From assembly GCF_006345805.1 (NCBI RefSeq), contig NC_043010.1, positions 32,178,001-32,242,000 of the forward strand: a stretch of 64,000 nt of DNA, in the 5' to 3' direction. The translations under genes and the position numbers were made by a program. Numbering within the stretch: the first letter of the stretch is position 1; each line of letters begins with the position of its first letter. Shown here piece by piece: positions 1,672-61,719 of this stretch. The stretch comes from Octopus sinensis. Its lineage: Eukaryota. Below the pieces are notes generated by a model, which saw nothing but the letters and a program-made list of their open reading frames with translations, made no database searches and was not told the origin of the DNA.

Positions 1672-3714
1672 TACATTGCTTCACAATGTCAACTTATTGA
1701 TATTCAAAATGAACAATAACCATATCAGTATCACATGTGTGGAACAGCCATAGTTACTGTCCTTCTTTCCCCTCTGATTCATAGCTAAAATATGTTAAAT
1801 GCTTATTATTATCTTTCTAAAGCATCTTTTCCATGCATCTTTTCAATGCAGAAACAAGTCTTTCACCTATCAATTTCTTACCACCACCACCACCACCACC
1901 ACCACCATCATGGTCATTGTCATCATTTTCATCATCATCATCATTATAAATATCACTGAATTTTCAATAATGATAAATGAATCGGAAATAATAATGTAGT
2001 GTGGAGTGGGGCAATGAATAATTTTTAATTCAATAATTGCATTGTTGATAATTGCATAATTAATACAGGGTTGTCTAATGTGATGATATCTTGATGGTGG
2101 CGGTGGCTGTGCTGGTAATAATGATGAGGGAATGTAAATGGTAGAGTGATTTGGCAATAAAAGAATGAAATGTTTGGTCAGGTAAGGTAATGGAGGAGAT
2201 AGTGCTGGTGGTAGTGAAGACATTTGGCAGAAGAATAAAGGTATTGGTAGGGATGGTGATATGCATGTCGTGGTTGCGCATTATTGGAGTTTGAAGTAAT
2301 GATGACAGTGTTGGTATTAGCATTGATGATGGTGATGTAATGCTATTAATGCAATATTATGATATTTTACCTTCATAGTTTCATTCAATGCTGCCATCTG
2401 AAACAAATGAACATTTTTATATTGCTTCATTACTCTTTATTGGTTCTTAGTCTTTGACTGTGGCCATGCTGGGGCATCATTTGCAAGTATATTTACTCAA
2501 TTATATTGACCCCACTACTTAATCTGGTACTTAATTTAGTTTTGTCTTGTCTTGGTTTATCGTGAGTCACATCTCATTTAGAGAGTTATTTCCCCTCATG
2601 GAGAAAATATCACAAAGAATTTACAGTGACTTACACCAGCATATACATAACACACACACACACATAGTAAAATGTGGCATGGAAGGATGATAACAGGACA
2701 TACAAAAGATATGGACACACTACATACATACCTACATCTATCTATGTATCTGTACATCTGTCTGTTAGCCTGTTTATCTATCTATTTATAGATAGATATC
2801 GTAGTATGTGGTTGGAAGCCCAACACCATGCCATATATAATCAAGTGGAAAATTGTAGAAAAATCCATGCCATCTAAGAAATGCAACTTATATATAGTTG
2901 AAAGATCACATATCCCTTTTAACTTTAAAAATTCCACTGCGCTGCTGAATTCCAGATCTGAAATTTTCAGCAAATGCAGACATATGGACAAAATTGCTTT
3001 TGGTGAATTGAAGTACTCCACCCTCTCCTGATTAAACAGCTGTATCACAAACTTTGGACCCCTCTGCATTGATTCATTCTGTAATTAACTTTATTATGGC
3101 TTTACAGACAAAGGGTACATAACTCTCTTCTTCTTTTCTTTTTCCATTTTTTTCACCCTTCCACATTTTACATCCACCTTCTCATTTTTTTCTTGTGATT
3201 TCCCTTCTTCTAGCGCCCTGATTTGTATAGGCCTTGTTCTCAGAGCCTGAACATTTAAAGTTTAATTAAAAAAACTAAACATTAAAAATAAAAAGTAATA
3301 TATATATGTACATACATTTTTTTGTGTACTCATATATATGCATCTCTATATATTTACCTCCATTTGTTGCAGTTTATATGCAATAAAATAATGTGCAATA
3401 AAATAATGTGCATGTGTATGACTAGCTGTCTGTATAGACATATGCAATGCTGTTTTTGCTTTTAGTGTAAATTGTCTGTGAGAAGAAACCAGTTTAAATA
3501 ATGTCTATAACAACATTCTTATTTTAAATCCAAGTTGTATCTTTCCATTTTTCCCTACAAAAGCTGTGTTTTATTCATTTTATATATGTACACATGTGTG
3601 GTTTTGTCTTTATGTATCATTGTACTAAATGTATCTAAGTTTAAGTATGTGATGATGTGTGTATGTATGTAAATGTTTATGTATGTTGAAGGGGGAATTA
3701 AACCAGATGTTTTT

Positions 3715-4400
3715 CCTTTTACTATTCTTATGTTGGATGGGTTGCTATTGAAGTTTGGTTTGTGGTCTTTCCTGGTTATATATGAGCATTTTGGTATAAA
3801 TGTATCTACTCTTATCTATTTTAAGTTTAGTGACTATTTCTTTGGTTGTGGTGTTAAAGCTACATATTTCGTTTTCTTGTATGCCTTGAAGATTGCTTTA
3901 GAAAGAAAGTGGTAGAGTTTGTTTGCCTCATCTGATTTTACAAATATATTTGGGCTTGTTTTAATGTGGTTGATTTTCTGTTTCAGCTGCTTTTCCAGTT
4001 TTTTGTTTTGCTTGTTGAATTTCATTCTGTTGATCATTATAAATAGGTAATCTTCAAAGGGTTGTAACAATGGGTTAGGTGGCAGACATTTGGCTGTCTT
4101 AAATCCATAATTGTTGGGGAACTGTTCTTCCTTTTGATCATTTCCATAATGATAAATTTTCCATCAGTGACTTTTGATGAAGTGTTTTGTTTTTTGTAGT
4201 AATACTTTTTGGTAGGTTTTGGTTGGTTTTTTAGGTAATACTTTTTGATACGTTTGACATTTTTTTTATAGAGAAGTGTATTGGGTGGTGCTGCAACTTT
4301 TCCTATTTTACAGTTTATGTTATGAAAGCACTCATGTCAGAACAGAGCTATTATATTGTTTGTCTTTATGTTTAGGTTTAATAAAAACAATTTTACATTA
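3715..4400 (-). pseudogene. Neptune-type Penelope-like element, N-terminal/RT-proximal remnant
   Basis: Minus strand reads NYGFKTAKCLPPNPLLQPFEDYLFIMINRMKF...IFVKSDEANKLY and YITRKDHKPNFNSNPSNIRI. These match PLE motifs YGF..PP...FExDL, V.ADKT.NLY and ITLKDHKPNF..NP..RLI. Frames are disrupted. Confidence 0.75.
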
Positions 4401-43859: not shown

Positions 43860-44496
43860 GTGATTGTAGATATATATATGTATGCATATGTGTCCTTTAA
43901 ACATTTTCTGTCCAATATTCAGCAGAATAATTCTTTTCATAAGTCTTTTTCTTTTTGATATTTCCATCTCTTATGGCTTTGAAATTTTCAAATGAAATGA
44001 TTTGATTTAGGAAATTTTTTTTCTGTAACTTCTAAGGAAATCAACTCCTTTTATCAGCAACAATCATACTAAAAAAATCCGCTTTCTGTGTATATCTCCT
44101 TCAGTTCTACTTCAATATTCTTTTGTGGCTTTTTGTATATTTGTTTAGTTTTGCTTTTGAAAATCAGGTTTTATTTATTCAATTAATTATTATTATATTA
44201 GAAATTTCTCATAACCATCATTTTCATCATCATATTTCCATCATCATCGTCATGATCATCATCATTATCATCACCACCACAACTACCAGCCATCATTGAC
44301 ATTGTTGTCGTTATTATCATTGTCACCACTGCAATCACCATTGTCCTCCTCCTTCTCACCACCATTAATCATTATTGATATTAGTGTTCTTTCCCTGCAC
44401 AACTGAATGCAACTATTTTTGTTTTGTTATCATATAGAATCTATTCTCCAATAATAAGTGTATGTGCAGTGCCTTGTAGCATTATTCTCTGTATGT

Positions 44497-44545
<49 letters not shown>

Positions 44546-44732
44546 GTATAAATGCATGTGTATGTCTTGGGATTCTTGTTATGCATAAGTCTACATCTTT
44601 TTCATTCAGTTGTAAGACACCTGTTGTTATCTAATCTTTCAGTAGACAACTATTTGTCTTGCAATCTTTCAGAATTTATCACTCTTCATCTATCTTTTGT
44701 CTATCTACCTGTCCCTCTCTTTCTCTCTCTCT

Positions 44733-44792
<60 letters not shown>

Positions 44793-44865
44793 GCATGTAT
44801 GTAATGCAGAAGAAATGTGAAGGCTAGAGAGGAATGAAGCTAGTATGCTCCACTGGATGTACAAT

Positions 44866-45441
44866 GTGGTTCTAGGAACATTTATGCCACAGGAAAACTT
44901 GCCGCAGGAAACTTTGCCATATAGGAAATTTTGCCGTAAGATAATATCGCCATATAGATAATTTTGAAGATATGGCAGGCAACCTGATTAGAGAAATTGC
45001 AGTTCTGAAAAAAATTGCTTTATATATATATATATGTGTGTGTTTTTCATACTTCCGTTTTAGATCTAACTAATTTTTTTGTTTTCTTTTTGCTCTTTGT
45101 AAACGTTATCATATTTATTACTTTTTTATTTAAGCAGAATTTTTTTTTGAAAACATATTTTAGGTTGCTTTATTTTTGCACCCACTGTAGCTTTGCCATA
45201 ATAATATAATAAATATGTTGGTTGAAGCAATTATATACCAAGGGATTAGTTCATCTTTTTTGGGAGCAGGGAATTGTCTTATGGCAAAATTTCCTATGTG
45301 GCGAGCTTGCCTATGGCAAAATTTTCTATGTGGCGAGCTTGCCTATGGCAAAATTTTCTATGCAGTGAACCTATGGCCAAAACTCCTAAGGCGAATTTTC
45401 CTGCAGCAAAAATATTTGCAGTAAAATTTTTGGATACAGTG
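44866..45441. mobile_element. Non-autonomous foldback-like DNA element with inverted arrays of ~15-bp subterminal repeats (second copy ~46787-47360)
   Basis: The left end has repeats GGAAA(A)(C/T)TTGCC(G/A); the right end has inverted TATGGCAAAATTT(T)CT / GGCGAATTTTCC arrays. Exact ends are uncertain. Confidence 0.65.
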
Positions 45442-45474
45442 CGATATCAGTGTATATGTACAAGTGAGTCCTAC

Positions 45475-46010
45475 TATATTGAGAGAAAATTAGGTATGAG
45501 AAAAATTAGATGCAGTGTGCATTAGAGAAGACTCTGCTGGCTTGGTCATGTGATGTGTATGGATGTAGACAGTTACATAAAGAAATGCTGATCACTTGAT
45601 GTCAGCGGAACTTGTAGAAGAGTTTCATTCCCAAGAAGATGTGGAATGAAATATTGACGGTTAATTTCAAGAGCCTTACAAAGGAGATGGCAAAGGATTG
45701 AGATATCTGGCACCTTGCTGTACTCAGAAAGACCTGTTCACCACAGCAGAATTGATATCCTTAGCCACTTTGGTTAATGCTCTCCTCCCAGCTGAGGAGA
45801 TTTTTGTCTTGCAAGTTACTTGGTGACCCTGTCAGTGTTGGTGCCACATAAAAGCATCCAGTACACTCTGTAAAGTGGTTGGTGTTAAGAAGGGCATCCA
45901 GCAGTAGAAACCAAGCCAAAACACATGCCTGGGACCTGGTACAGCTCTCCAGCTTGCCAACTCTAGCTAGCCAGCTCCAACCCATGTCAACATAGAAAAT
46001 AATGTTAAAT
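45475..46010 (+). mobile_element. RTE LINE 3' end plus 3'UTR fragment (duplicated at ~47394-47930)
   Basis: LREKLGMRKIRCSVH*RRLCWLGHVMCMD-like translation followed by the RTE 3'UTR motif. Confidence 0.75.
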
Positions 46011-46210
46011 GTATGTGTGTGTGTGTGTGTGCACACACACAAACACACACACACACAGTTTCCTGTACTTATATATACACCATTGTGCTTAGAAAATGTT
46101 ACTGCAACTACAATATCCTTACGTATCTCACGTCTGTTTTCATTCCTCCACTTCACTCTGTATTTCATATCTTCTCTATCGTAACTATTACTTGAAAATT
46201 TTCTCACACA

Positions 46211-46258
46211 GTCTCTGATGAAGGGATATATAAAATATCCTGGAAACAGCTGTAAGAC
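46211..46258 (+). ncRNA. Minimal type-I hammerhead ribozyme (PLE-type), copy 1
   Basis: GTCT-CTGATGA-a[GGGATAT ataaa ATATCCT]g-GAA-ACAGCTGT-A|AGAC. Stem I is GTCT/AGAC, stem II is 7 bp, and stem III is the palindrome ACAGCTGT. Predicted cleavage after A46254 (GUA). Confidence 0.85.
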
Positions 46259-46336
46259 CTTCTCTTTTTAAATGTTCTGAAAACTATTCACAGCCTTGGA
46301 ATTTTTTATCTCATTGTGTTAATTTATATATGTATG

Positions 46337-46372
<36 letters not shown>

Positions 46373-46409
46373 GTGTGTGTGTGTGTGTGTGTGTATGTTT
46401 GTATGTGTA

Positions 46410-46457
<48 letters not shown>

Positions 46458-46648
46458 GTATAAATGCATGTGTATGTCTTGGGATTCTTGTTATGCATAA
46501 GTCTACATCTTTTTCATTCAGTTGTAAGACACCTGTTGTTATCTAATCTTTCAGTAGACAACTATTTGTCTTGCAATCTTTCAGAATTTATCACTCTTCA
46601 TCTATCTTTTGTCTATCTACCTGTCCCTCTCTTTCTCTCTCTCTCTCC

Positions 46649-46713
<65 letters not shown>

Positions 46714-48131
46714 GCATGTATGTAATGCAGAAGAAATGTGAAGGCTAGAGAGGAATGAAGCTAGTATGCTCCACTGGATGTACAATGTGGTTCTAGGAAC
46801 ATTTATGCCACAGGAAAACTTGCCGCAGGAAACTTTGCCATATAGGAAATTTTGCCGTAAGATAATATCGCCATATAGATAATTTTGAAGATATGGCAGG
46901 CAACCTGATTAGAGAAATTGCAGTTCTGAAAAAAATTGCTTTATATATATATATATGTGTGTTTTTCATACTTCCGTTTTAGATCTAACTAATTTTTTTG
47001 TTTTCTTTTTGCTCTTTGTAAACGTTATCATATTTATTACTTTTTTATTTAAGCAGAATTTTTTTTTGAAAACATATTTTAGGTTGCTTTATTTTTGCAC
47101 CCACTGTAGCTTTGCCATAATAATATAATAAATATGTTGGTTGAAGCAATTATATACCAAGGGATTAGTTCATCTTTTTTGGGAGCAGGGAATTGTCTTA
47201 TGGCAAAATTTCCTATGTGGCGAGCTTGCCTATGGCAAAATTTTCTATGTGGCGAGCTTGCCTATGGCAAAATTTTCTATGCAGTGAACCTATGGCCAAA
47301 ACTCCTAAGGCGAATTTTCCTGCAGCAAAAATATTTGCAGTAAAATTTTTGGATACAGTGCGATATCAGTGTATATGTACAATTGAGTGCTACTATATTG
47401 AGAGAAAATTAGGTATGAGAAAAATTAGATGCAGTGTGCATTAGAGAAGACTCTGCTGGCTTGGTCATGTGATGTGTATGGATGTAGACAGTTACATAAA
47501 GAAATGCTGATCACTTGATGTCAGCGGAACTTGTAGAAGAGTTTCATTCCCAAGAAGATGTGGAATGAAATATTGACGGTTAATTTCAAGAGCCTTACAA
47601 AGGAGATGGCAAAGGATTGAGATATCTGGCACCTTGCTGTACTCAGAAAGACCTGTTCACCACAGCAGAATTGATATCCTTAGCCACTTTGGTTAATGCT
47701 CTCCTCCCAGCTGAGGAGATTTTTGTCTTGCAAGTTACTTGGTGACCCTGTCAGTGTTGGTGCCACATAAAAGCATCCAGTACACTCTGTAAAGTGGTTG
47801 GTGTTAAGAAGGGCATCCAGCAGTAGAAACCAAGCCAAAACACATGCCTGGGACCTGGTACAGCTCTCCAGCTTGCCAACTCTAGCTAGCCAGCTCCAAC
47901 CCATGTCAACATAGAAAATAATGTTAAATGTATGTGTGTGTGTGTGTGTGCACACACACAAACACACACACACACACAGTTTCCTGTACTTATATATACA
48001 CCATTGTGCTTAGAAAATGTTACTGCAACTACAATATCCTTACGTATCTCACGTCTGTTTTCATTCCTCCACTTCACTCTGTATTTCATATCTTCTCTAT
48101 CGTAACTATTACTTGAAAATTTTCTCACACA

Positions 48132-48179
48132 GTCTCTGATGAAGGGATATATAAAATATCCTGGAAACAGCTGTAAGAC
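48132..48179 (+). ncRNA. Minimal type-I hammerhead ribozyme (PLE-type), copy 2
   Basis: Identical to 46211-46258, 1921 bp downstream in the duplicated unit. Confidence 0.85.
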
Positions 48180-48257
48180 CTTCTCTTTTTAAATGTTCTG
48201 AAAACTATTCACAGCCTTGGAATTTTTTATCTCATTGTGTTAATTTATATATGTATG

Positions 48258-48259
<2 letters not shown>

Positions 48260-48318
<59 letters not shown>

Positions 48319-48585
48319 TTGTATGTGTATATATATATATATATATATATAAGAATAATTTTATAACTTCGTTCAACTGAAAAGCATTTCTGTTAAACCA
48401 AAGAACAAAAATGAAAATAGGACTGCAACAGGAAGTGTTCATGTGACACCAAAGTGAAAGAAGAAATAAACTGAAAGGTATAATGAATAAGCGGTCCAAT
48501 CGGTCAAAACAGCTTTGTAATTTAGTTGTTTTGACCGATTGGAGCATTTATTCATTATACCTTTCAATTTTATATATATATATAT

Positions 48586-48941: not shown

Positions 48942-50200
48942 GAATGTACATTAAAGATTTCCCCTGATCCAGTTCTGATTATTGTAGGAAACGGAACTTG
49001 TACAGGTATAATCATACATGTCTCCACATGTCACTTTGTAATTTGCAGCTTTTGACTTGTATTTGTTTGTTTTTTATGGCTGCTGAAATGAATTAAGGTG
49101 TTATAACATAGGCAGCTCAATGCAGAACAGTGATCAGGTTCTTATACTTGAAAAGTCGTACACCAAAGAGACTTTCAATTATACGATATAGTCAAGCACT
49201 GGCATCACCAATCCAAATGTGTTTGGACATTGGTGGTAGCTGCTCCAATTCCTGGATGACCACATTCCGCCATTGATGACAACATCATCCATAAAGTAAA
49301 AGCCACCACTTTGGAGGATCACTGCATAACTATTCGGCAACTAGCCCAAAAAGTGAAGAGAATTATAGGGTCCATGGAAAAAATCCTTCATGACCATTTG
49401 CTCGTGCAGAAGTTATCTGCATGATGGATTCCCTGGATGCTCACACTTTTTCAGAAGAAGGTACGAGTCAATTGCTCCCAGGCTTTTTTGGCAATGTACC
49501 AAGAAAATGAGGAGGACTATTTTGTCAGACTTATCACACAGGATGAAACATGGGTCCATCACTATGACCTTGAGACTAAAGCCCAGTCAAAGTAATGAAA
49601 GCATGATAATTCATCACCTCCAAAGAAGGCTTGTGTCCAACCCTCAGCAGGCAAGGTGATGCTCACAGTCATTTGGGACGACCAACATGGAGTAGTGATG
49701 AGGAATTTTCTGGTACTGGACAACACAATCAACAGGACATATTATGCTTCTCTGCTTCAGAAATTATGGGACGCCATCAAAGCAGAGAGGCATGGCATGC
49801 TAACCAGAGTAGTCCACCTCCTCCAAGACAACACCCCAGTTCACAATGCACATGTTACACAGATGAAAACACATTCCTGCTGCTATGAAATCCTTCTTCA
49901 TCACCCTTACTCTCCTGACCTCACACCATCTGACTTCCACTTCTTTCCAACCATGAAATCTTTTTTGAAGGGGGAGCACTTTTACAGATGATGATGAACT
50001 TATTTCTGAGGTAAGGTTTTGGCTTCAGATGCAACCTACTGACTTCTACAGACAAGGTTTTCACAGCTGCATAAAGCTATGGGAGAAGTGTGTCACCATT
50101 GGTGGTGGCTATGCATTGAAGGGCTAATAATTATGCCAAGTTTTATTTATCCCAGTTCTTGGGAGATGGATCAGGGGAAATCTTTAATGAACACCTGTCA
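48938..50200 (+). mobile_element. Full-length mariner (DD34D), decayed
   Basis: TIR core cattaaagatttcccctgatcca at both ends. The transposase remnant includes WIPWMLT, ITQDETWVHHYD and LQDNTPVH...(34)...YSPDLTPSDFHFF. Confidence 0.92.
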
Positions 50201-52784: not shown

Positions 52785-54343
52785 ACAATGCAATCATTCA
52801 TCCACATACAGGGATGCTGTCAGAAAGGTGAGGATTGGCAATGAGTATAGCGATGATTTCAAGGTATAAGTAAGGGTTCGCCAAGGTTCATCATAGCCCT
52901 CCAGACAATAACAGAGAAATTTAAGACAGGCTGCTCCTGGGAGCTGATGACCTTGTTTTTAAAGCAAAATCCCTACCAGAACTAGAGAAATTTAAGCTGT
53001 GGAAACAAGGTTGAGAATCAAAAGGCATTAGCGATAACCTAGCAAAAACCAAAGCCCTTAGTAAGTAAGTAAGCAGAAAAATCACAAATTCCTTCAGGTA
53101 GATGGCCTTGCTCGATCTGTAGATAAAGCATAGGTAGAAAGATGTATCTGGCATAAGCTTTGGACACATAAAAGGTGCAGCAATATCAAAGGAAGTTTAA
53201 CTGGGAAAATAGTTCCTGTGTGTGGAAGATTCACAGGTACAGTAAACCCCCAAAATGTACAGAAAATAGACTCGATCAAATGCCAATGAGGTTTGCTAGA
53301 GGTAGTTGATAGCTTCTGTTATCTAGTTGATCAAGCCAGTAGCAGGGGTGGATGCTTCAAGGGCATAGCTGCAAGAATAAGAATAGCCTGGGCAAAGTTC
53401 AGTGCGCTCTTTCTTCGCTTGGCAACAAAGGGCCTCTCCCTCAGAATAAAAGGCAGACTGTATGATGCCTGTGTGCAAATGGCTATGCTACACAGCAATG
53501 AAACATGAGTGGTGACCATCGAGGATATATATATGCTTGAAAGAAACAAAGCTAGAATGCTTTGCTGAATGTGCAATGCCAGTGTACATGTACGACAGAG
53601 TGTAAGCATCTTAAGAGAAAAGTTGGGCATAAGAAGCATAAAATGTAGTGTGCAAGAGAGATGACTGCACTAGTATGGACAAGGACAGCTGTGTAAAAAA
53701 TTGCCAATATTTAGCTGTAGAGGGAACCTGTGAAAAAAGGTAGACCCAGGAAGGCATTGGAAGAGGTGGTGAAGCATGATCTTTGAACGTTGGGCCTCAC
53801 AGAAACAATGGCTGGTGATTGAGAGCTTTGAGTTGACCCATCAGGCCAAGTGGAATCATACTTGTGGCTGCTGCCTATTTCATGCAACCAGAACTCATGC
53901 TGCTGGCATGTAAATATCACCTTCAAGCGGTAGGCTCACAGAATCAACTGGCACTCGTGCTGGTGGCATATGAAAAGCACCTGCTGAGTGTTGGGCCTCA
54001 TGGAGGTAATGTGTCTGATGCTGGCTCATGTAACTGGTATCCATACTGGTGGCACATAAAAAGCACCTTTCAAGTGTTGGGCTTCATAGAGGCAATGACA
54101 AATGACCAAGACCTTTGGCAATATGCCATGCTTGAGAAGTAAGATCTATTGAGCCAAGTGAAATCGTAGTCCTGGCGAATATTAGTGTCACTCAACTGGC
54201 ATCCATGTCTGTGGCACATAAAAAACCCATTACACTCTTGGAGTGATTGGCATTAGAAAAAGCATCCAGCCACAGAAACCATGCCAAATCAGACTGGAGT
54301 CTGATGAAGCTAGCATGGACAACGGACGTTAAATGATGATGAT
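52785..54343 (+). mobile_element. 5'-truncated RTE LINE (RT C-terminal half to 3' tail)
   Basis: VRQGS, ITEKFKTGCSWE..DDLV, EVVDSFCYL..ARIRIAWAKF..RLYDACVQMAMLHSNET, GRPRKALEE; the 3'UTR ends gacgttaaatgatgatgat. Confidence 0.9.
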
Positions 54344-54606
54344 ATACACACACACACACACACACACATATATTTAATATTATAATTATTAGGGAAGATT
54401 AATTCCGAGTACACAGGAATGACATATTCAAATTAAAGGTACTAAAGTGAACTTCTCTCAATATTTTATTCATATATATAAAAGTAGTTTTAGAGACAGA
54501 ACCACTATCCACTCAATCAACATTGAAAGATATTATACCCGACTGAGCCATAAAATATTAAATATGATACTATATTTGTTTAGAATCCCATACTTTCTAT
54601 TTTAAA

Positions 54607-54703
54607 GACTACACATGTTTCATGACAGTATGTTGGTATTGTTGAGATATAAGGTCTCTAGTTTCAATACACAGTTAGATCGAAGTACTCCAATCTTCAG
54701 GTC
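54607..54703 (-). ncRNA. Type-I hammerhead ribozyme with extended stem II
   Basis: Minus strand: GAC-CTGAAGA-t[tggagta...gtattg..gaga/tctc..caatac...tactgtca]t-GAA-ACATGTGT-A|GTC. Confidence 0.8.
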
Positions 54704-55583
54704 AGGATTCTACACATTTATTACTCTACATCCTATATGACTCTATGATAATTGAAATTATTTGACTACAAATCGTTAACATAATTTTACTTGACAAATT
54801 AATGACTAAAAATAAAAATAATTAATGAACCTTAAAAATTTAAGGAATTAAAGAGAATAAAAAATATGAAATAAAAATAATGAACAAAATGAATGTTAAC
54901 TTATCTATTTGGGGTTCCCTCCCAACGAAAATTAATCATGGCTACATCTTACAAATAACGTACAGTCCACATGTAAGAGAGGTAATTCTAATTATTATTA
55001 GAGAGTTCTTAGAATGTATTTATTACTTTATATATTTACCGTGTATGAACAGTACACATTAAACTACCCTATAGTTAACATAATACAGTCAGGTGATTCG
55101 GAAACAAATGTATCATGGGAACTGGCCAATCCCCTCACTAGCTATTCACTCAACCCACATGCCACCACCAACAATCAACCAGGCCTCCTGACACTCAAAC
55201 AGTAAGTTCCTTCTTTAGACCCCCAATTCAAATATTTTGGGATACATAAAAATTTTTCTTTTTTTATGTTTATATAAATTCTATATTATTTAATATCTAT
55301 TACTTATACTATTATTCTTAAAAATTAGACATTACATTTTAGTTAAATTTCTAAATTTAAGTTTAAAAATTTCAACTAAAAAAGTGTAATGTACAACTGA
55401 AAATTTAATTAAAAATCTAAAATATCCGAAATTAACCAAATAATATCTTATATTTTTGTATGACTAAGTACTACATTTTAGTTATTTTAAATAATGGTAT
55501 ATAATTATAACTTTTATCTAAAAAAATGACTGAATTTTAATCCTTTAAAATTAGATTTTGTTTATTTACTAAAGCATCCAATC

Positions 55584-56060
55584 TTATCTCATCGTATTAA
55601 TTAAACAATTAAGCTTATGTTTGCATTTAATTTTTCTTTCATTCTGGGTATTAAGCAATGTTGTTTTGGCCTTTAAGATTTCCATAAATTCGTGAGTACA
55701 CAACAGACAGAACTTATTCCCTATTCTATATGATTTAGTTTTCCATATTATCTCCTACCTTAGATTGTATTTAATTTCTTTAGATTTTAGACGCCAAATA
55801 TATTCATTTAAGCCTGTCGAGTTCATTAATTTTTTATTTTTAAAAGAGTACAAATGCTGCGCTATTCTTTGCTTAATTTTATTCGATGTAGATCCAATTT
55901 ATGGTGTATATGAATTTTCCCCATTATTGTTATTATTACCTTCCCTTTGACCATTCCTATCTTCATTTAAAGACACCACACATTTGTATACTACCTCCTT
56001 TAAGTTACATTTATTATTAAGTTACAATTATTTTTATCCCTACAATTACAGTTTGTTGAG
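55584..56060 (-). pseudogene. PLE GIY-YIG endonuclease remnant
   Basis: CNCRDKNNC..NKCNLKEVVYKCVV...*IGSTSNKIKQRIAQHLYSFKN..NSTGLNEYIWRLK..*EII..CLLCTHE..LLN..E..CKHK; stops replace the YIG Tyr and a conserved Trp. Confidence 0.88.
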
Positions 56061-56309
56061 TTATTACCATTATTATTGGGATATTTATTTAGTTTATTGA
56101 GATAAAATTTATTCAGCTTATATTTATCTAATGATGAGATAATATTACCTACATTACTAGTAGTCGAATATCAAACTTAACATCAGTTAAAACTTGACAT
56201 CAAACAACTAAGTAAAGAAATAATAAAACAGACATATGAGTAAACCAAAGAAACAATTGGTAGCATTTGTATGCAACATAAACCACAAAACTATAAAAAA
56301 ATATTGGTT

Positions 56310-56490
56310 TTGACACAAAGCCAGCAAGTTTGGGGAAGGGAGTAACATGATTACATCGACCCCAGTGCTGAACAGGTACATATTTTGTTGACCCCCAAAT
56401 TGGTGGAATTTGAATGCAGAGCGTAAAGATGGACAAAATGCAACGAAGCATTTTACCCACCATGCTAAAGATTCTACCAGCTTGCCACCT
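56310..56490 (-). mobile_element. Degenerate SINE (family A)
   Basis: Reverse complement gives aggtggcaagctggtagaatctttagcatg...ctgcattcaaattccacc...cactggggtcgatgtaatc. Confidence 0.7.
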
Positions 56491-57534
56491 ATTTAAAACA
56501 AATATTATACTGAGGAATAAGCAGTATCAACAACAACAGGTGCACTACAGCTTATGCTACAATAGCAACTTCTACTAATATACACTCCCTTTGCTAGAAA
56601 ATCACCCCTCAAAGGACCACACAAAACAGCAGGAACACAAATCCTTCCATCTTGACCATCATTATATGGAAATCTAAAAAACTGAAAACCCTCAGAGCAC
56701 AGCAAATTTACAGACATACACATGTATTTTCTGGAGGAATCATTGCACTCCCCAACATCTTCAGCTATTCCTACCTTGAGTCAGCAATGAGCCTCTATGC
56801 GGTCACTCAACTTGCAAGAAATAGCTCCCTGCATTTGTTGAAATGGCCACTATGGATAATGCATTCCCAGCTCCCTGCACACAGAAAATAGACCGGATGG
56901 TCCAACTAGACTGTCTCCATTGTGAACACCACCAGAATCTGTGCCCTATCCTAAAAGTATGCAGTAATAAACTGGACATGTCACACTGCAGCCCCATATG
57001 ATCTATCACAGTCTGTCAGAGTGTGTGCAACCTACAAGTGTAAAAATATATACTAGACAGCAGAGAGAGGGTACTATGTATAGACTTTGAAGCTGCCCCC
57101 TGTGTGATTGCTCATGACACACTAAAGTATAGTCCTCAGTTGGAGGGAGACTTAGTGATGGATCTGTAAGGAGGTGATGGATCCGTAATGAGCAAGGTCA
57201 GTGTTCAGCTTACTACCTCTATTTTCTAGGACTAATTGATTTAGAATTGACTTGAAGTGATAGGGACAACAATAATAGCTAGTAATACAACATCAATAAA
57301 TAGTAACAAGAACAACAGCAATGATTTTATCATCGTTTGTTGTTGTTCATATTAATATGTTTATTGTTGATGTTATTGTTGTTAGCGTCATTAAGTTTTA
57401 TTGCTGTTATTGTTAGTGTCAGAATGTTTTAATGTTGTTGCTGATATGTTCAAGAAAGTGACTTGATAGCTAATATTTTACAGAAATGACAAAAGGAAAT
57501 GTTATCATCTTTCAGTGATCAACTCTTACATCAT

Positions 57535-57678
57535 GTATGATGATGGTGATGATGATGACAGTAATAATAGTAATAATAATAATAATGATAATAATAATAA
57601 TAATAATAACGATAATGATAATAATAATGATGATAATTTCATTTATTTGCCATAAGTGCGAAGGATGAAGGGGATAAA

Positions 57679-57730
<52 letters not shown>

Positions 57731-57780
57731 TAATAATAATGGTAGTAATGATGATGATGATGATGATGATGATGACCTGT
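57535..57780. repeat. (GAT)n/(AAT)n microsatellites
   Basis: Direct reading. Confidence 0.95.
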
Positions 57781-58136
57781 AGTAATGTTGCTGCTATGGC
57801 TGATGTTAGTGGTAGTGGTGATGGTAGTGATGGTATTAGTAATAACAGTTGCAGTAGAAGCAGTATTTAGTTTTATTTATAACAAAATCTCCTGCAGGGA
57901 AAGTTAAAAGGTATCCATCACACCAGTCTAGCCTGACCTGACCTGACACCTCCTTCCCTATCTCTTAAATTCTGCCAATGTCTTCAGTAAGTGACATTTC
58001 ACTTGTATTGGTTACAATTCCAAATGAACACACTGTACAATCTATAATTTATAAGGCTGCTTCCTGAGACCTCATCTAGTACTTACACATATAGGTATAT
58101 TGCAAACTTACTCATAATGCACATACACTCACATGT

Positions 58137-58199
<63 letters not shown>

Positions 58200-58355
58200 T
58201 ATATATGTATATATGTATGCATGTATATATATATATGTATATATATATATGTAAGTATATATATTATGTATATATATATATATATGTATATATATGTATA
58301 TATATATATGTGTGTGTGTATATATGTGTGTGTGTATATGTGTATATGTATGTAT

Positions 58356-58663
58356 ATCATCTTTCTCCTTTCTCCAACCAGTCCATCAGATGTAGTTACA
58401 CATCGCTGGTCACAATGCGTTCGCATTGTTTTAGCCTTTGAATGACGCCACCCCGCTGGCTAAGCGAGCTGGCCAACAGAAGAAAGAGTGGGAGAAAGAG
58501 TGGTGAAAGAGTACAGCAGGGATCACCACCCCCTGCTGGAGCCTCGTGGAGCTTTTAGGTGTTTTCGCTCAATAAACACTCACAACGCTCGGTCTGGGAA
58601 TCGAAACCGCGATCCTACAACCGCGAGTCCGCTGCCCTAACCATTGGGCCATTGCACCTCCAC
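58356..58663 (-). mobile_element. tRNA-derived SINE (third family)
   Basis: Reverse complement begins gtggaggtgcaatggcccaatggttagggcagcggactcgcggttgtaggatcgcggtttcgattccc (A and B boxes); CpG-rich; flanked by TA/TG repeats. Confidence 0.88.
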
Positions 58664-58830
58664 GTGTATGTATATATGTTTGTATATATATATATGTGTG
58701 TATATATATGTATATGTATGTATATGTATATATGCATGTATGTGTATATATGGTATATCAAATTATAGTTTGTTATACCTGTAAGTTGAAATATATAATG
58801 ATAGATAAAATTATAAATGGGGGATAGGTG

Positions 58831-58924
58831 GATCTGAAGATTGGGGTTGTATATAAGGGGAGGTTCTGTAAGAGACTGGGTGCCTCAAGAACATAGCATA
58901 CAACCTCATGAAAGACGTGTAGTC
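58831..58924 (+). ncRNA. Type-I hammerhead ribozyme with extended stem II
   Basis: GAT-CTGAAGA-t[TGGGGTTGTAT...ATACAACCTCA]t-GAA-AGACGTGT-A|GTC. Stem II is 11 bp; stem III is one substitution from the palindrome ACACGTGT. Confidence 0.8.
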
Positions 58925-59151
58925 GACAACTTTGAATAGTAAGTTTTAAATATAATATTCTATAACATGGTTGAATTTATATTCTGATTTGATGAATTTA
59001 TGGGGATTTTTGTCTCTAATGATACTTTGATATATATGTATTTATTTATTGAGAATAATTCAACTTAATATTCTTAACTTGAATATCTCATCCCTGTGAT
59101 GCTGATATTCCCTTATTATTATAAAAAATATATATGTACATATATATATAT

Positions 59152-59187
<36 letters not shown>

Positions 59188-59255
59188 GGTGTATATATAT
59201 ATGTATATATATATGTGTGTGTGTATATATATATATATGTATATATACATATATG

Positions 59256-59286
<31 letters not shown>

Positions 59287-59341
59287 GTATATATAGTTGT
59301 ATATATATATATGTATATATATATATGTATATATATAGTTG

Positions 59342-59372
<31 letters not shown>

Positions 59373-59392
59373 GTACATATATATATATGTAC

Positions 59393-59423
<31 letters not shown>

Positions 59424-59442
59424 TATATCTATATATATATAT

Positions 59443-59473
<31 letters not shown>

Positions 59474-60581
59474 CACATATATATATGTCTTAGAGGAAAA
59501 ATCAAAACTAATGCTGAACGAGTCATTTAGAATATTTAATTAGGGTAAGGTGAATTTGAAGTCTGACAGCCATTTTTGGGATAACCCAAGCAGTAGATTA
59601 GTACGTCCATGCACTTGGTATTCCATCATCAGAGACAGGGCATGAATATTTTAGACAGGGAAAAATTTACAGTTTATTCTAAACAACTTTTAAGTCCACT
59701 CAAAAAGCTCCCACTATATTATTTAATAACACGTTCGATTCTTCTGTTCTTCTCCACCATCTCCCTCCTCCTTTGCCTCCTCCTCATCATCCTCATCATT
59801 ATTGCCATCACCATCATTGCTATCATTACAGTCGTCAATATCACTAAATTTCCATCACTATCATCATCATCATCATCATCATCAACATCATCATCATCAT
59901 CATCAGAACCACTACCCTTACTGCTATCACTACCTGTGCTCTCACCATCACCACCACCACCACCACCACAAACATCACTATTAATATCAATAGATTTCTT
60001 AATCTGATGTTGACATTTTGTTATCATGCTGGCTTGTCACTCCAAAATGGTAATGTGCAACTGTGAAGGTGAGTGCAGCAGTGCAGGTGGCAGTATGAGT
60101 GCAGCAGTGCAGATGACAGTGTAAATGCTGCAGTAATATATTTTGTGCTTTTTAATTTACTATCTAGTCTCTTTGATCTGTAGCATCACAACAGCAGCAC
60201 ATTGAATAGTTTATCTTCTACCATGGCCTTCTCTGTATGTAGTACTCTATTGTTCAGAATTAACTCACTGTGTACATTATGTTTCCATTCAAATAGTTAT
60301 GGACACCAGCAGAGCAAGATAGTTGTTGTGACAGGGTGTAATATCATGTTGAACTAAGTGTCTCTTGTCTAATGATAAGCATACAAATTTTAGTCTGTTT
60401 CTACACATAATATGACCTCAACGTGACAATTTTAATTTTGGTGTTAGTTAATATTAGATTTGAAAACAAATTAAGTGATCAGATTATTTCAGGAGACTGC
60501 AAGAACAAAAGTAGAAAAAAGATTACTTACCAACTCTTGTGGGTTTCTGGTGTTCACCTAGAACACCCATCGTTTATGTAG

Positions 60582-60737
60582 GGCATAGGAGTGACTGTGT
60601 GGTAAGATGTTTGCTTCCCAACCACATGATTCTAGGTTGTCCCATTGTGTGACACTTTGGCCAAGAGTCTTCTATTATGGCCCCAGCCCAACAAAAGTTT
60701 TGTGAGTAGATTTGGTAGGTGGAAACTGAAAGAAGCC

Positions 60738-60745
<8 letters not shown>
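60582..60745 (+). mobile_element. SINE family B, 5' part
   Basis: ggcataggagtgactgtgtggtaagatgtttgcttcccaaccacatg...ggaaactgaaagaagccc, running into (TA)n. Confidence 0.85.
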
Positions 60746-60785
<40 letters not shown>

Positions 60786-60794
60786 TATATATAT

Positions 60795-60829
<35 letters not shown>

Positions 60830-60860
60830 TATTAATAATAATAATAATAATAATAATGAT

Positions 60861-60921
<61 letters not shown>

Positions 60922-61173
60922 TGAGGGAATATTATTCCAAACTTACAGGGAAAAATTCAATTTAGAAATACTAAATCAAATTTCACAAAAATATAATATA
61001 TATATATATATAAATTAGAAAAAAGACACCTTTTATCAATTCAATAATGAAGAATTAAATTATACCATTTAGAAAAATTACATATTATAGAAAGATTAAA
61101 TATAAGATAAAACATATAACAATGATTAATTAATGTGCGAAATAATAAATAAACATGTATATATTTGGTAGAA

Positions 61174-61283
61174 TAATGACACATGTTTCGTGGCTATATT
61201 TAAGAAATGATAATAGTAATAATAGTAGTAGTAGTAGTAGTAGTAAAATCACTTCATTATAAATATAGCCACTCTTCAGGTTA
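61174..61283 (-). ncRNA. Type-I hammerhead ribozyme with microsatellite in loop II
   Basis: Minus strand: TAAC-CTGAAGA-[GTGGCTATATTTA...(CTA)n...TAAATATAGCCAC]-GAA-ACATGTGT-C|ATTA. Stem II is a perfect 13 bp, the triplet is GUC, and the first pair of stem I is a C.A mismatch. Confidence 0.82.
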
Positions 61284-61614
61284 AAGATAAAAAGAATAAA
61301 ATAATTAATTAGATAAATTAATAAATATATGTAAATAATCTTGTAAAATACTAAATATCTTAGCAAGTATATTCTTGTTTAAATTTTAAAAAATAGAATA
61401 AAAAATAAGATACAATTAATTAAAATATTTAAAACATATATATATATATATATTATTCAAAGAAATTCCAACTCTGTTTTTTATGTTTTATTTATATTCT
61501 TTATAATATTAATGTAGAATATAGAATATAGAGTATAAATAATATATATATAGTAAAATGAAATGAAGTATTGATTGTCTTATTGAATAGATAAAATATT
61601 GAATATAAAATATT

Positions 61615-61661
61615 TAGGGACTAGTATACTTTCTTGCATTATAGCAATCTTCAAGGTTCTA
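61615..61661 (-). ncRNA. Minimal type-I hammerhead motif, decayed
   Basis: Minus strand: tagaacc-TTGAAGA-TTGC tataat GCAA-GAA-AGTATACT-A|gtcccta. Stem III is a perfect palindrome; C3 is altered and stem I is imperfect. Confidence 0.6.
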
Positions 61662-61719
61662 GTTTGTGACAGGAGTGTTTCAACACACACACACACACAT
61701 ATATATATAATCTTCTATT

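Follow-up and report, generated by a model that had tools for sequence, protein, structure and literature searches.

Penelope-like element debris with an extended hammerhead stem II and a shared 3′ tail in the Octopus sinensis genome

A 64-kb stretch of the Octopus sinensis genome (contig NC_043010.1, positions 32,178,001 to 32,242,000; hereafter the window) contains three fragments, A, B and C, of Penelope-like elements (PLEs), each combining a hammerhead ribozyme motif with a conserved 3′ tail. Element A is likely to be a dead, 5′-truncated copy of a Hydra-clade PLE and B a truncated member of a longer family that shares this end, B and C being tail-end copies of two sister Hydra families. 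All three are real but mostly ordinary PLE debris; what stands out is the length of the ribozyme stem and the conservation of the tail.

Three hammerheads with a common 3′ end

The window is AT-rich (GC 27–38%) and has many microsatellites. A pattern describing the shared terminus matched it exactly three times, at 54391–54431 (minus strand), 59079–59113 (plus) and 60924–60960 (minus). A hammerhead-core pattern with a 60–90 nt spacer also matched exactly three times, at 54611–54700 (minus), 58834–58920 (plus) and 61179–61279 (minus), and neither pattern matched in 100 shuffles. These shuffle counts overstate the case, because both patterns were fitted afterwards to A, B and C; the support for three elements comes instead from the fact that core and terminus coincide, in the same orientation, three times out of three. 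From the cleavage nucleotide to the terminal TTCCCT, the distance is 219 nt in A and 192 nt in B; in C, measured between 61178 and 60924, it is 254 nt. An initial annotation of this DNA had reported a terminal motif some 190–250 nt from a hammerhead at three sites, and we could confirm this, together with the Penelope-like origin, the real hammerhead cores and the shared terminus. An earlier form of the motif, with a 10–16 nt gap, matched A and C and missed B, which is 6 nt shorter inside it.

Element A lies at 54388..56190 on the minus strand (its 5′ boundary is approximate) and is decayed and truncated at its 5′ end. It is the only one of the three with a coding remnant. Element B (58764..59116, plus strand) sits between TA-rich microsatellites and belongs to a multi-copy sister family, whereas C (60921..61435, minus strand) is a non-coding hammerhead-and-tail fragment of a third, more distant family, bordered by (TA)n at the 5′ junction and by (ATT)n/(TA)n on the 3′ side. 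Repeats of the TA type thus adjoin both B and C on both sides; the 3′ end of A adjoins a short TA run followed by (TG)n, and no repeat was seen at its 5′ end. Beside C, the interval 61450–61680 is AT-rich, runs from the (TA)n at the 5′ junction to a (CA)n run, and gave no convincing match to C or A.

The three hammerheads match the type I core (CUGANGA / GAAA / UH, with stems I–III). That of A occupies 54607..54703 (minus strand; core 54700–54694), with predicted cleavage after 54610; that of B, 58831..58924 (plus strand; core 58834–58840), with predicted cleavage after 58921; and that of C, 61175..61282 (minus strand; core 61279–61273), with predicted cleavage after 61178. Every genomic copy has a flaw, namely a decayed base helix of stem II in A, a defect in stem III in B and a mismatched first pair of stem I in C, while contigs of the B family (see below) are intact. 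The genomic copies themselves are probably inert. A search against Rfam returned no hammerhead in the window, on B alone or on a short-stem hammerhead, D, described below; since D was missed too, this result is uninformative on stem length.

The stem II region measures 72 nt in A, 69 nt in B and 83 nt in C, and this extension is a family trait. It had been proposed that the stem II sequences differ completely while pairing is kept. The first part stands for C and fails for A and B, whose stem II regions are 60% identical (0 of 1000 shuffles as good) and hence homologous. Both are built from a base helix, a middle helix and a short GAGA/UCUC hairpin, and by eye the middle helices appear to differ by two compensatory pairs. 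Stem II of C consists of a 13-bp and an 8-bp helix, with a loop enlarged by an (ACT)n run. Pairing is indeed kept in B (z −2.3, with equal stability in 9 of 500 shuffles) and in C (z −6.4; 0 of 500), but not in A as it is now present (z +0.9; 407 of 500), because its base helix has decayed: the long stem forms there only when the base pair is forced, at −5.8 kcal/mol as against −7.2 kcal/mol for the free fold.

Downstream of the hammerhead comes an internal TATATA, followed by the tail. In A this unit spans 54388..54480 on the minus strand, with TATATA at 54480–54473 and an 11-bp hairpin at 54452–54426; in B it spans 59030..59116 on the plus strand, with the hairpin at 59058–59084; and in C it begins with a TA run and spans 60921..61008 on the minus strand, with the hairpin at 60981–60955. 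The tails are 80–85 nt long and 66–73% identical in pairwise comparison (0 of 1000 shuffles as good for all three pairs). Across the three, 30 of 33 cells of the 11-bp hairpin are paired, and a small terminal hairpin follows on its 3′ side in A and C. Element B has a 6-nt deletion near 59102 relative to its family; the contigs carry the 6 extra bases and with them a small terminal hairpin like those of A and C. A and B further resemble each other in the stretch from the cleavage site to TATATA (0 of 1000 shuffles as good). Scanning a metagenome for the tail motif yielded 118 matches, none with a hammerhead-like core within 400 nt upstream; these are chance matches, and the tail motif alone is not specific.

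Our guess is that the tail is the start of the next tandem unit, because a second Hydra remnant in the window (see below) has a TA run and a hairpin upstream of its open reading frame (ORF), much like the published start of Hydra-1_Ajap as compared by eye.

The coding remnant of element A

In A, a linker (56003..56170, minus strand) with the motif CxCx5C at 56050–56024 precedes the endonuclease; a frameshift lies near 56015, and BLASTP matched the linker to P0096 (E 6e-5). The GIY-YIG endonuclease remnant (55584..56018, minus strand) has two in-frame stops, a CxxC before the conserved E and a CxH after the conserved N. Between the stop codon and the hammerhead are ~880 nt of non-coding sequence (54704..55583, minus strand), which may include nested insertions, so that the whole 3′ non-coding region amounts to 1.2 kb. 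Element A is a dead, non-autonomous fragment, because it has no reverse transcriptase (RT) and begins near 56190. The initial annotation was correct that only this copy, at 54385–56200, retains a GIY-YIG remnant; its view of A as the autonomous lineage is contradicted by the missing RT, the two stops and the frameshift.

The same annotation had also placed the remnant in the Neptune clade. To judge from its motifs, A belongs to the Hydra clade instead. The published criteria for that clade (PMC8557442) are a CxCx5C linker, a CxxC and a CxH that flank the conserved E and N, and loss of CCHH. Both the linker and the flanking CxxC and CxH of a C-terminal GIY-YIG domain are found in A, and CCHH is absent, the second histidine being missing in a by-eye comparison with published alignment rows. 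The surroundings of the hammerhead core, where stem II is closed at its base by U.U or G-C and stem III reads ACA..UGU, fit rows of the published Hydra table, again by eye. When the A endonuclease was used in a HMMER search, 1735 matches were returned at E ≤ 0.001 (best E 1e-18, 42% identity). Among the best 150 of these, CxxC..E was present in 143 and N..CxH in 135; 58 of the 150 reach far enough upstream to include the linker, and CxCx5C was present in 23 of the 58 and a Neptune-type finger without CxCx5C in none. For the RT, the motifs expected of the clade are RWK and DKT; two full-length matches have DKT and do not have a literal RWK. Pfam gave no match for the A protein or for its full-length relatives, and a cluster look-up of seven relatives returned a name for none.

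Neptune and Hydra do have several features in common: a C-terminal GIY-YIG endonuclease, a linker with cysteines, microsatellites as targets and a hammerhead at the 3′ end. We nevertheless consider a Neptune assignment extremely improbable: the linker of A is CxCx5C rather than CX2-5CxxC, the conserved E and N are flanked by CxxC and CxH, the second histidine of CCHH is gone, and the published Neptune rows are unlike A while the Hydra rows resemble it.

Some observations sit less comfortably with the Hydra assignment. Two residues past the first tyrosine motif A has a cysteine, where published Hydra rows mostly have alanine. Neither linker motif was found in 35 of the 58 upstream-long matches, with a crude anchor. 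The A protein has no intact close relative among the sequences searched: the best HMMER matches are 32–46% identical to it, and two word-based searches for homologues were negative.

Truncated copies or separate families

The family of B could be followed in contigs from 4 of 24 runs (4 samples, 3 studies), aligned to B at 80% likeness; one of the runs, X1, may be from the same source as the window. Between 63 and 114 contigs per run align to B, and B is one member of a multi-copy family because most of these contigs are less than 99% alike. At the 5′ junction of B (58764/58766), the loose ends of the contigs lead in all four runs into one shared upstream sequence, different from the microsatellite flank of B (2–3 contigs per row, agreement 0.93–1.0, median 17–72 letters, among the rows listed, with 78 further). 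Among the contigs listed, three extend 275–285 letters past the 5′ end of B. Because the family runs on beyond this junction in four of four runs, B is a 5′-truncated copy and not a discrete element consisting of a pseudo-long-terminal-repeat (pLTR) only. The upstream sequence is not present elsewhere in the window.

Element B departs from its family at 58833, 58914, 58883 and 58897, where the family base is found at near 100% of depth. Each of these family bases restores a pair, in stem I, in stem III and twice in stem II, so that the family has an intact core, a palindromic loop III and a long stem II. Polymorphisms within the stem II helices keep pairing in three rows and break it in two, among the rows listed (26 further), as random transitions would give; they are no evidence of selection. 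Contig loose ends also occur at the internal TATATA, at 59030 (X4, X5) and 59036 (X5), in agreement with copies that stop or start there, that is, tail-less and tail-first copies. Depth rises at the start of the tail in X1, X3 and X5, not in X4, a rise that rests on one or two short contigs. Strand-switch joints were seen in the family contigs at 58847/59006 and 58855/58933 (X3, X4, X5); they are expected, because inverted 5′-truncated pieces have been described for PLE insertions.

The hammerhead cores, the common tail, the Hydra motifs of A, the extension of the B family past the 5′ end of B and the microsatellite flanks are observations; the mechanism by which such copies arose we infer, in large part by analogy. 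Hydra elements are published to insert into (TA)n, and PLE copies to be mostly 5′-truncated with an optional tail. The RT–endonuclease of an Anolis Poseidon element starts cDNA in vitro at two sites bracketing the tail (Frangieh et al. 2024, PMC11167929). By analogy, the RT–endonuclease protein would bind its own RNA at the conserved hairpin tail and nick (TA)n DNA, where cDNA would be primed; synthesis would start at one of two sites, the tail end or the internal TATATA some 80 nt upstream of it, and the choice would decide whether a copy has the tail. Short 3′ copies such as B and C were probably left where reverse transcription stopped early. With a 3′ non-coding region as long as that of A, most truncated copies would have hammerhead and tail and no ORF, so that B and C can be explained without a separate class of elements. 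With stems I and III of 3 bp each and a palindromic loop III, the hammerhead would cleave read-through or tandem transcripts inefficiently, and then probably when dimerised or assisted by a protein. Such cleavage is reported for PLE hammerheads (Cervera and de la Peña 2014, PMC4209133).

Alternatively, B and C could be true non-autonomous families, the former longer than the B copy, which lost the ORF, kept hammerhead and tail, and moved in trans by means of an A-like Hydra element. This would suit the contrast between the similar tails and the unalignable sequence 5′ of the cores, the lack of any ORF seen on the B-family contigs and the clean junctions of C with microsatellites on both sides; in Chlamys, moreover, non-autonomous PLE derivatives with 3′ ends common to autonomous families have been described. 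Yet the 5′ end of B is not a family end, and the long 3′ non-coding region accounts for the missing ORF with no extra assumption, so we regard this alternative as unlikely. It is much less probable still that B and C are monomers of non-LTR (non-long-terminal-repeat) retrozymes, that is, of tandem hammerhead repeats yielding small circular RNAs, despite their size of 350–515 nt, type I hammerheads and pLTR origin. In the window there is one hammerhead per element and no tandem unit, A and C being 6.5 kb apart and B on the opposite strand; among the contig joints listed, none connects the 3′ end of B back to its 5′ end; and the B unit ends in a PLE-type tail while its family continues upstream. 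The initial description as a non-autonomous, retrozyme-like pLTR-only element is contradicted for B, whose family continues upstream in all four runs, and no element is tandem; a non-autonomous nature may still apply to C or to a longer non-coding family behind B.

The derivation of B and C from truncated Hydra-type copies has its own difficulties, which we collect here. No ORF was seen on the upstream extensions of the B-family contigs, and the parent could be a longer non-coding family. The upstream parts of B and C have no match in the long 3′ region of A, and in the 60 nt 5′ of the hammerhead cores no pair among A, B and C can be aligned. In the stretch from cleavage site to TATATA, C has no detectable similarity to the other two elements (118 of 1000 shuffles as good for A, 502 for B). 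Any link of B and C with a Hydra ORF would lie only in the tail that they have in common with A and in the context of the core. The short hammerhead copies B, C and D all begin 70–155 nt upstream of the core, which could exceed chance, although they were located through the core itself. Contig depth is not equal to copy number, and we do not use the rise at the tail start as such. Finally, in the tail hairpin only one pair has changed on both sides across the three sequences, and 335 of 500 shuffles score as high. Covariation among three sequences is therefore not above shuffles, and the proposal that structure rather than sequence is conserved was overstated, the tails and the A/B stem II being conserved in sequence as well.

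A wider proposal can be put forward only tentatively, and we think it improbable as a whole: a Hydra sub-lineage would have a fixed three-helix extension of stem II and a ~80-nt hairpin tail acting as a docking and initiation signal for RT, with the tail shared by several families, some of which (C, or a longer parent of B) would be non-coding and moved in trans.

Neighbouring features and relation to known elements

Hammerhead D, found by pattern match, looks intact, with a 21-nt stem II and a 4-bp stem I. It is present twice, at 46211–46258 and 48132–48179 (both plus strand), because of a 1.95-kb tandem duplication (about 44490–46430 and 46400–48351, 98.9% identical), and sits in a segment of ~270 bp, flanked by microsatellites, whose end is a TA run without the tail. 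Two further Hydra-like ORF remnants lie in opposite orientation, an endonuclease C-terminus at 2816–3016 (plus strand; tblastn E 2e-7) and an N-terminal part at 3747–4360 (minus strand; E 7e-6). Near 4350, a TA run and a hairpin come before the N-terminal piece, and no hammerhead core was found downstream of the endonuclease stub at 2816–3016. A decayed DNA-transposon transposase lies at about 49240–50100 on the plus strand (Pfam PF01359, E 7.8e-6); we take it to be mariner-like from its motifs. Translation also revealed a decayed C-terminal piece of RT from a long interspersed nuclear element at 53200–53700 (plus strand), presumably RTE-like.

The element type, the hammerhead, the (TA)n targets and the optional tail are already in print. 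As described for the Hydra clade (Craig et al. 2021, PMC8557442; Hydra-2_Amil, Hydra-1_Obim, Penelope-1_NV), we found the linker, the CxxC and CxH, the loss of CCHH and (TA)n targets, as well as a type I hammerhead on the 3′ side in which U.U or G-C closes stem II at its base and stem III has 3–4 bp. The published ends of Hydra-2_Amil, Hydra-2_Ajap and Hydra-1_Crog consist, by eye, of a TA run and then a hairpin, as here. By contrast, the stem II region is 69–83 nt long here, about three times its length in described relatives: all 26 of the Hydra rows in that paper's File S2 fall at 12–26 nt, a short range that is not mainly an artefact of the descriptor, because 25 of 27 families are present in the file. 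Further differences are the 3′ non-coding region, ~1.2 kb in A as compared to ~0.2 kb in Hydra-1_Obim, and the terminal motif of A, B and C, which is absent from the ends of the six published Hydra consensus sequences compared. Two Selaginella PLE-X elements in File S2 also have a long hammerhead stem II (~48–54 nt), flagged there as deviating; these, however, are plant elements of another clade, endonuclease-less and targeted to ribosomal DNA. We found no description of a long-stem-II hammerhead in PLEs or Hydra elements in the literature (titles and abstracts, with few subscription journals), and Repbase or Dfam may catalogue the family.

Poseidon PAc of Anolis (PMC11167929), our model for the proposed mechanism, likewise has AT-rich targets and two internal RT start sites around an optional tail, and its hammerhead is described as active only with protein. 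It belongs to a different clade, however, and its tail, 30–40 nt in length, lies inside the start of the ORF, whereas the tails here are ~80 nt long and no ORF was seen in them. Retrozymes of the non-LTR type in metazoans (PMC7229834; Li et al. 2026, 10.64898/2026.07.22.740005) are, similarly to B and C, non-coding, a few hundred bases long, equipped with a type I hammerhead and derived from PLE terminal repeats. Their definition in these sources nonetheless calls for units in tandem, a minimum of two hammerheads and the formation of circular RNAs, unlike A, B and C, which are single and dispersed, with B from a longer family.

A published hammerhead core search used a spacer of 7–17 nt. A stem II of 70–80 nt exceeds that spacer, and counts of PLE ribozymes may consequently miss whole families. 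The conservation of the tail across three diverged families points to an RNA element as a possible binding and start site of the RT, a step so far demonstrated, in the literature consulted, in vitro for one Poseidon element (PMC11167929). If the sub-lineage tentatively proposed above did exist, the three families would constitute a natural covariation set for the RNA signal recognised by PLE reverse transcriptases.

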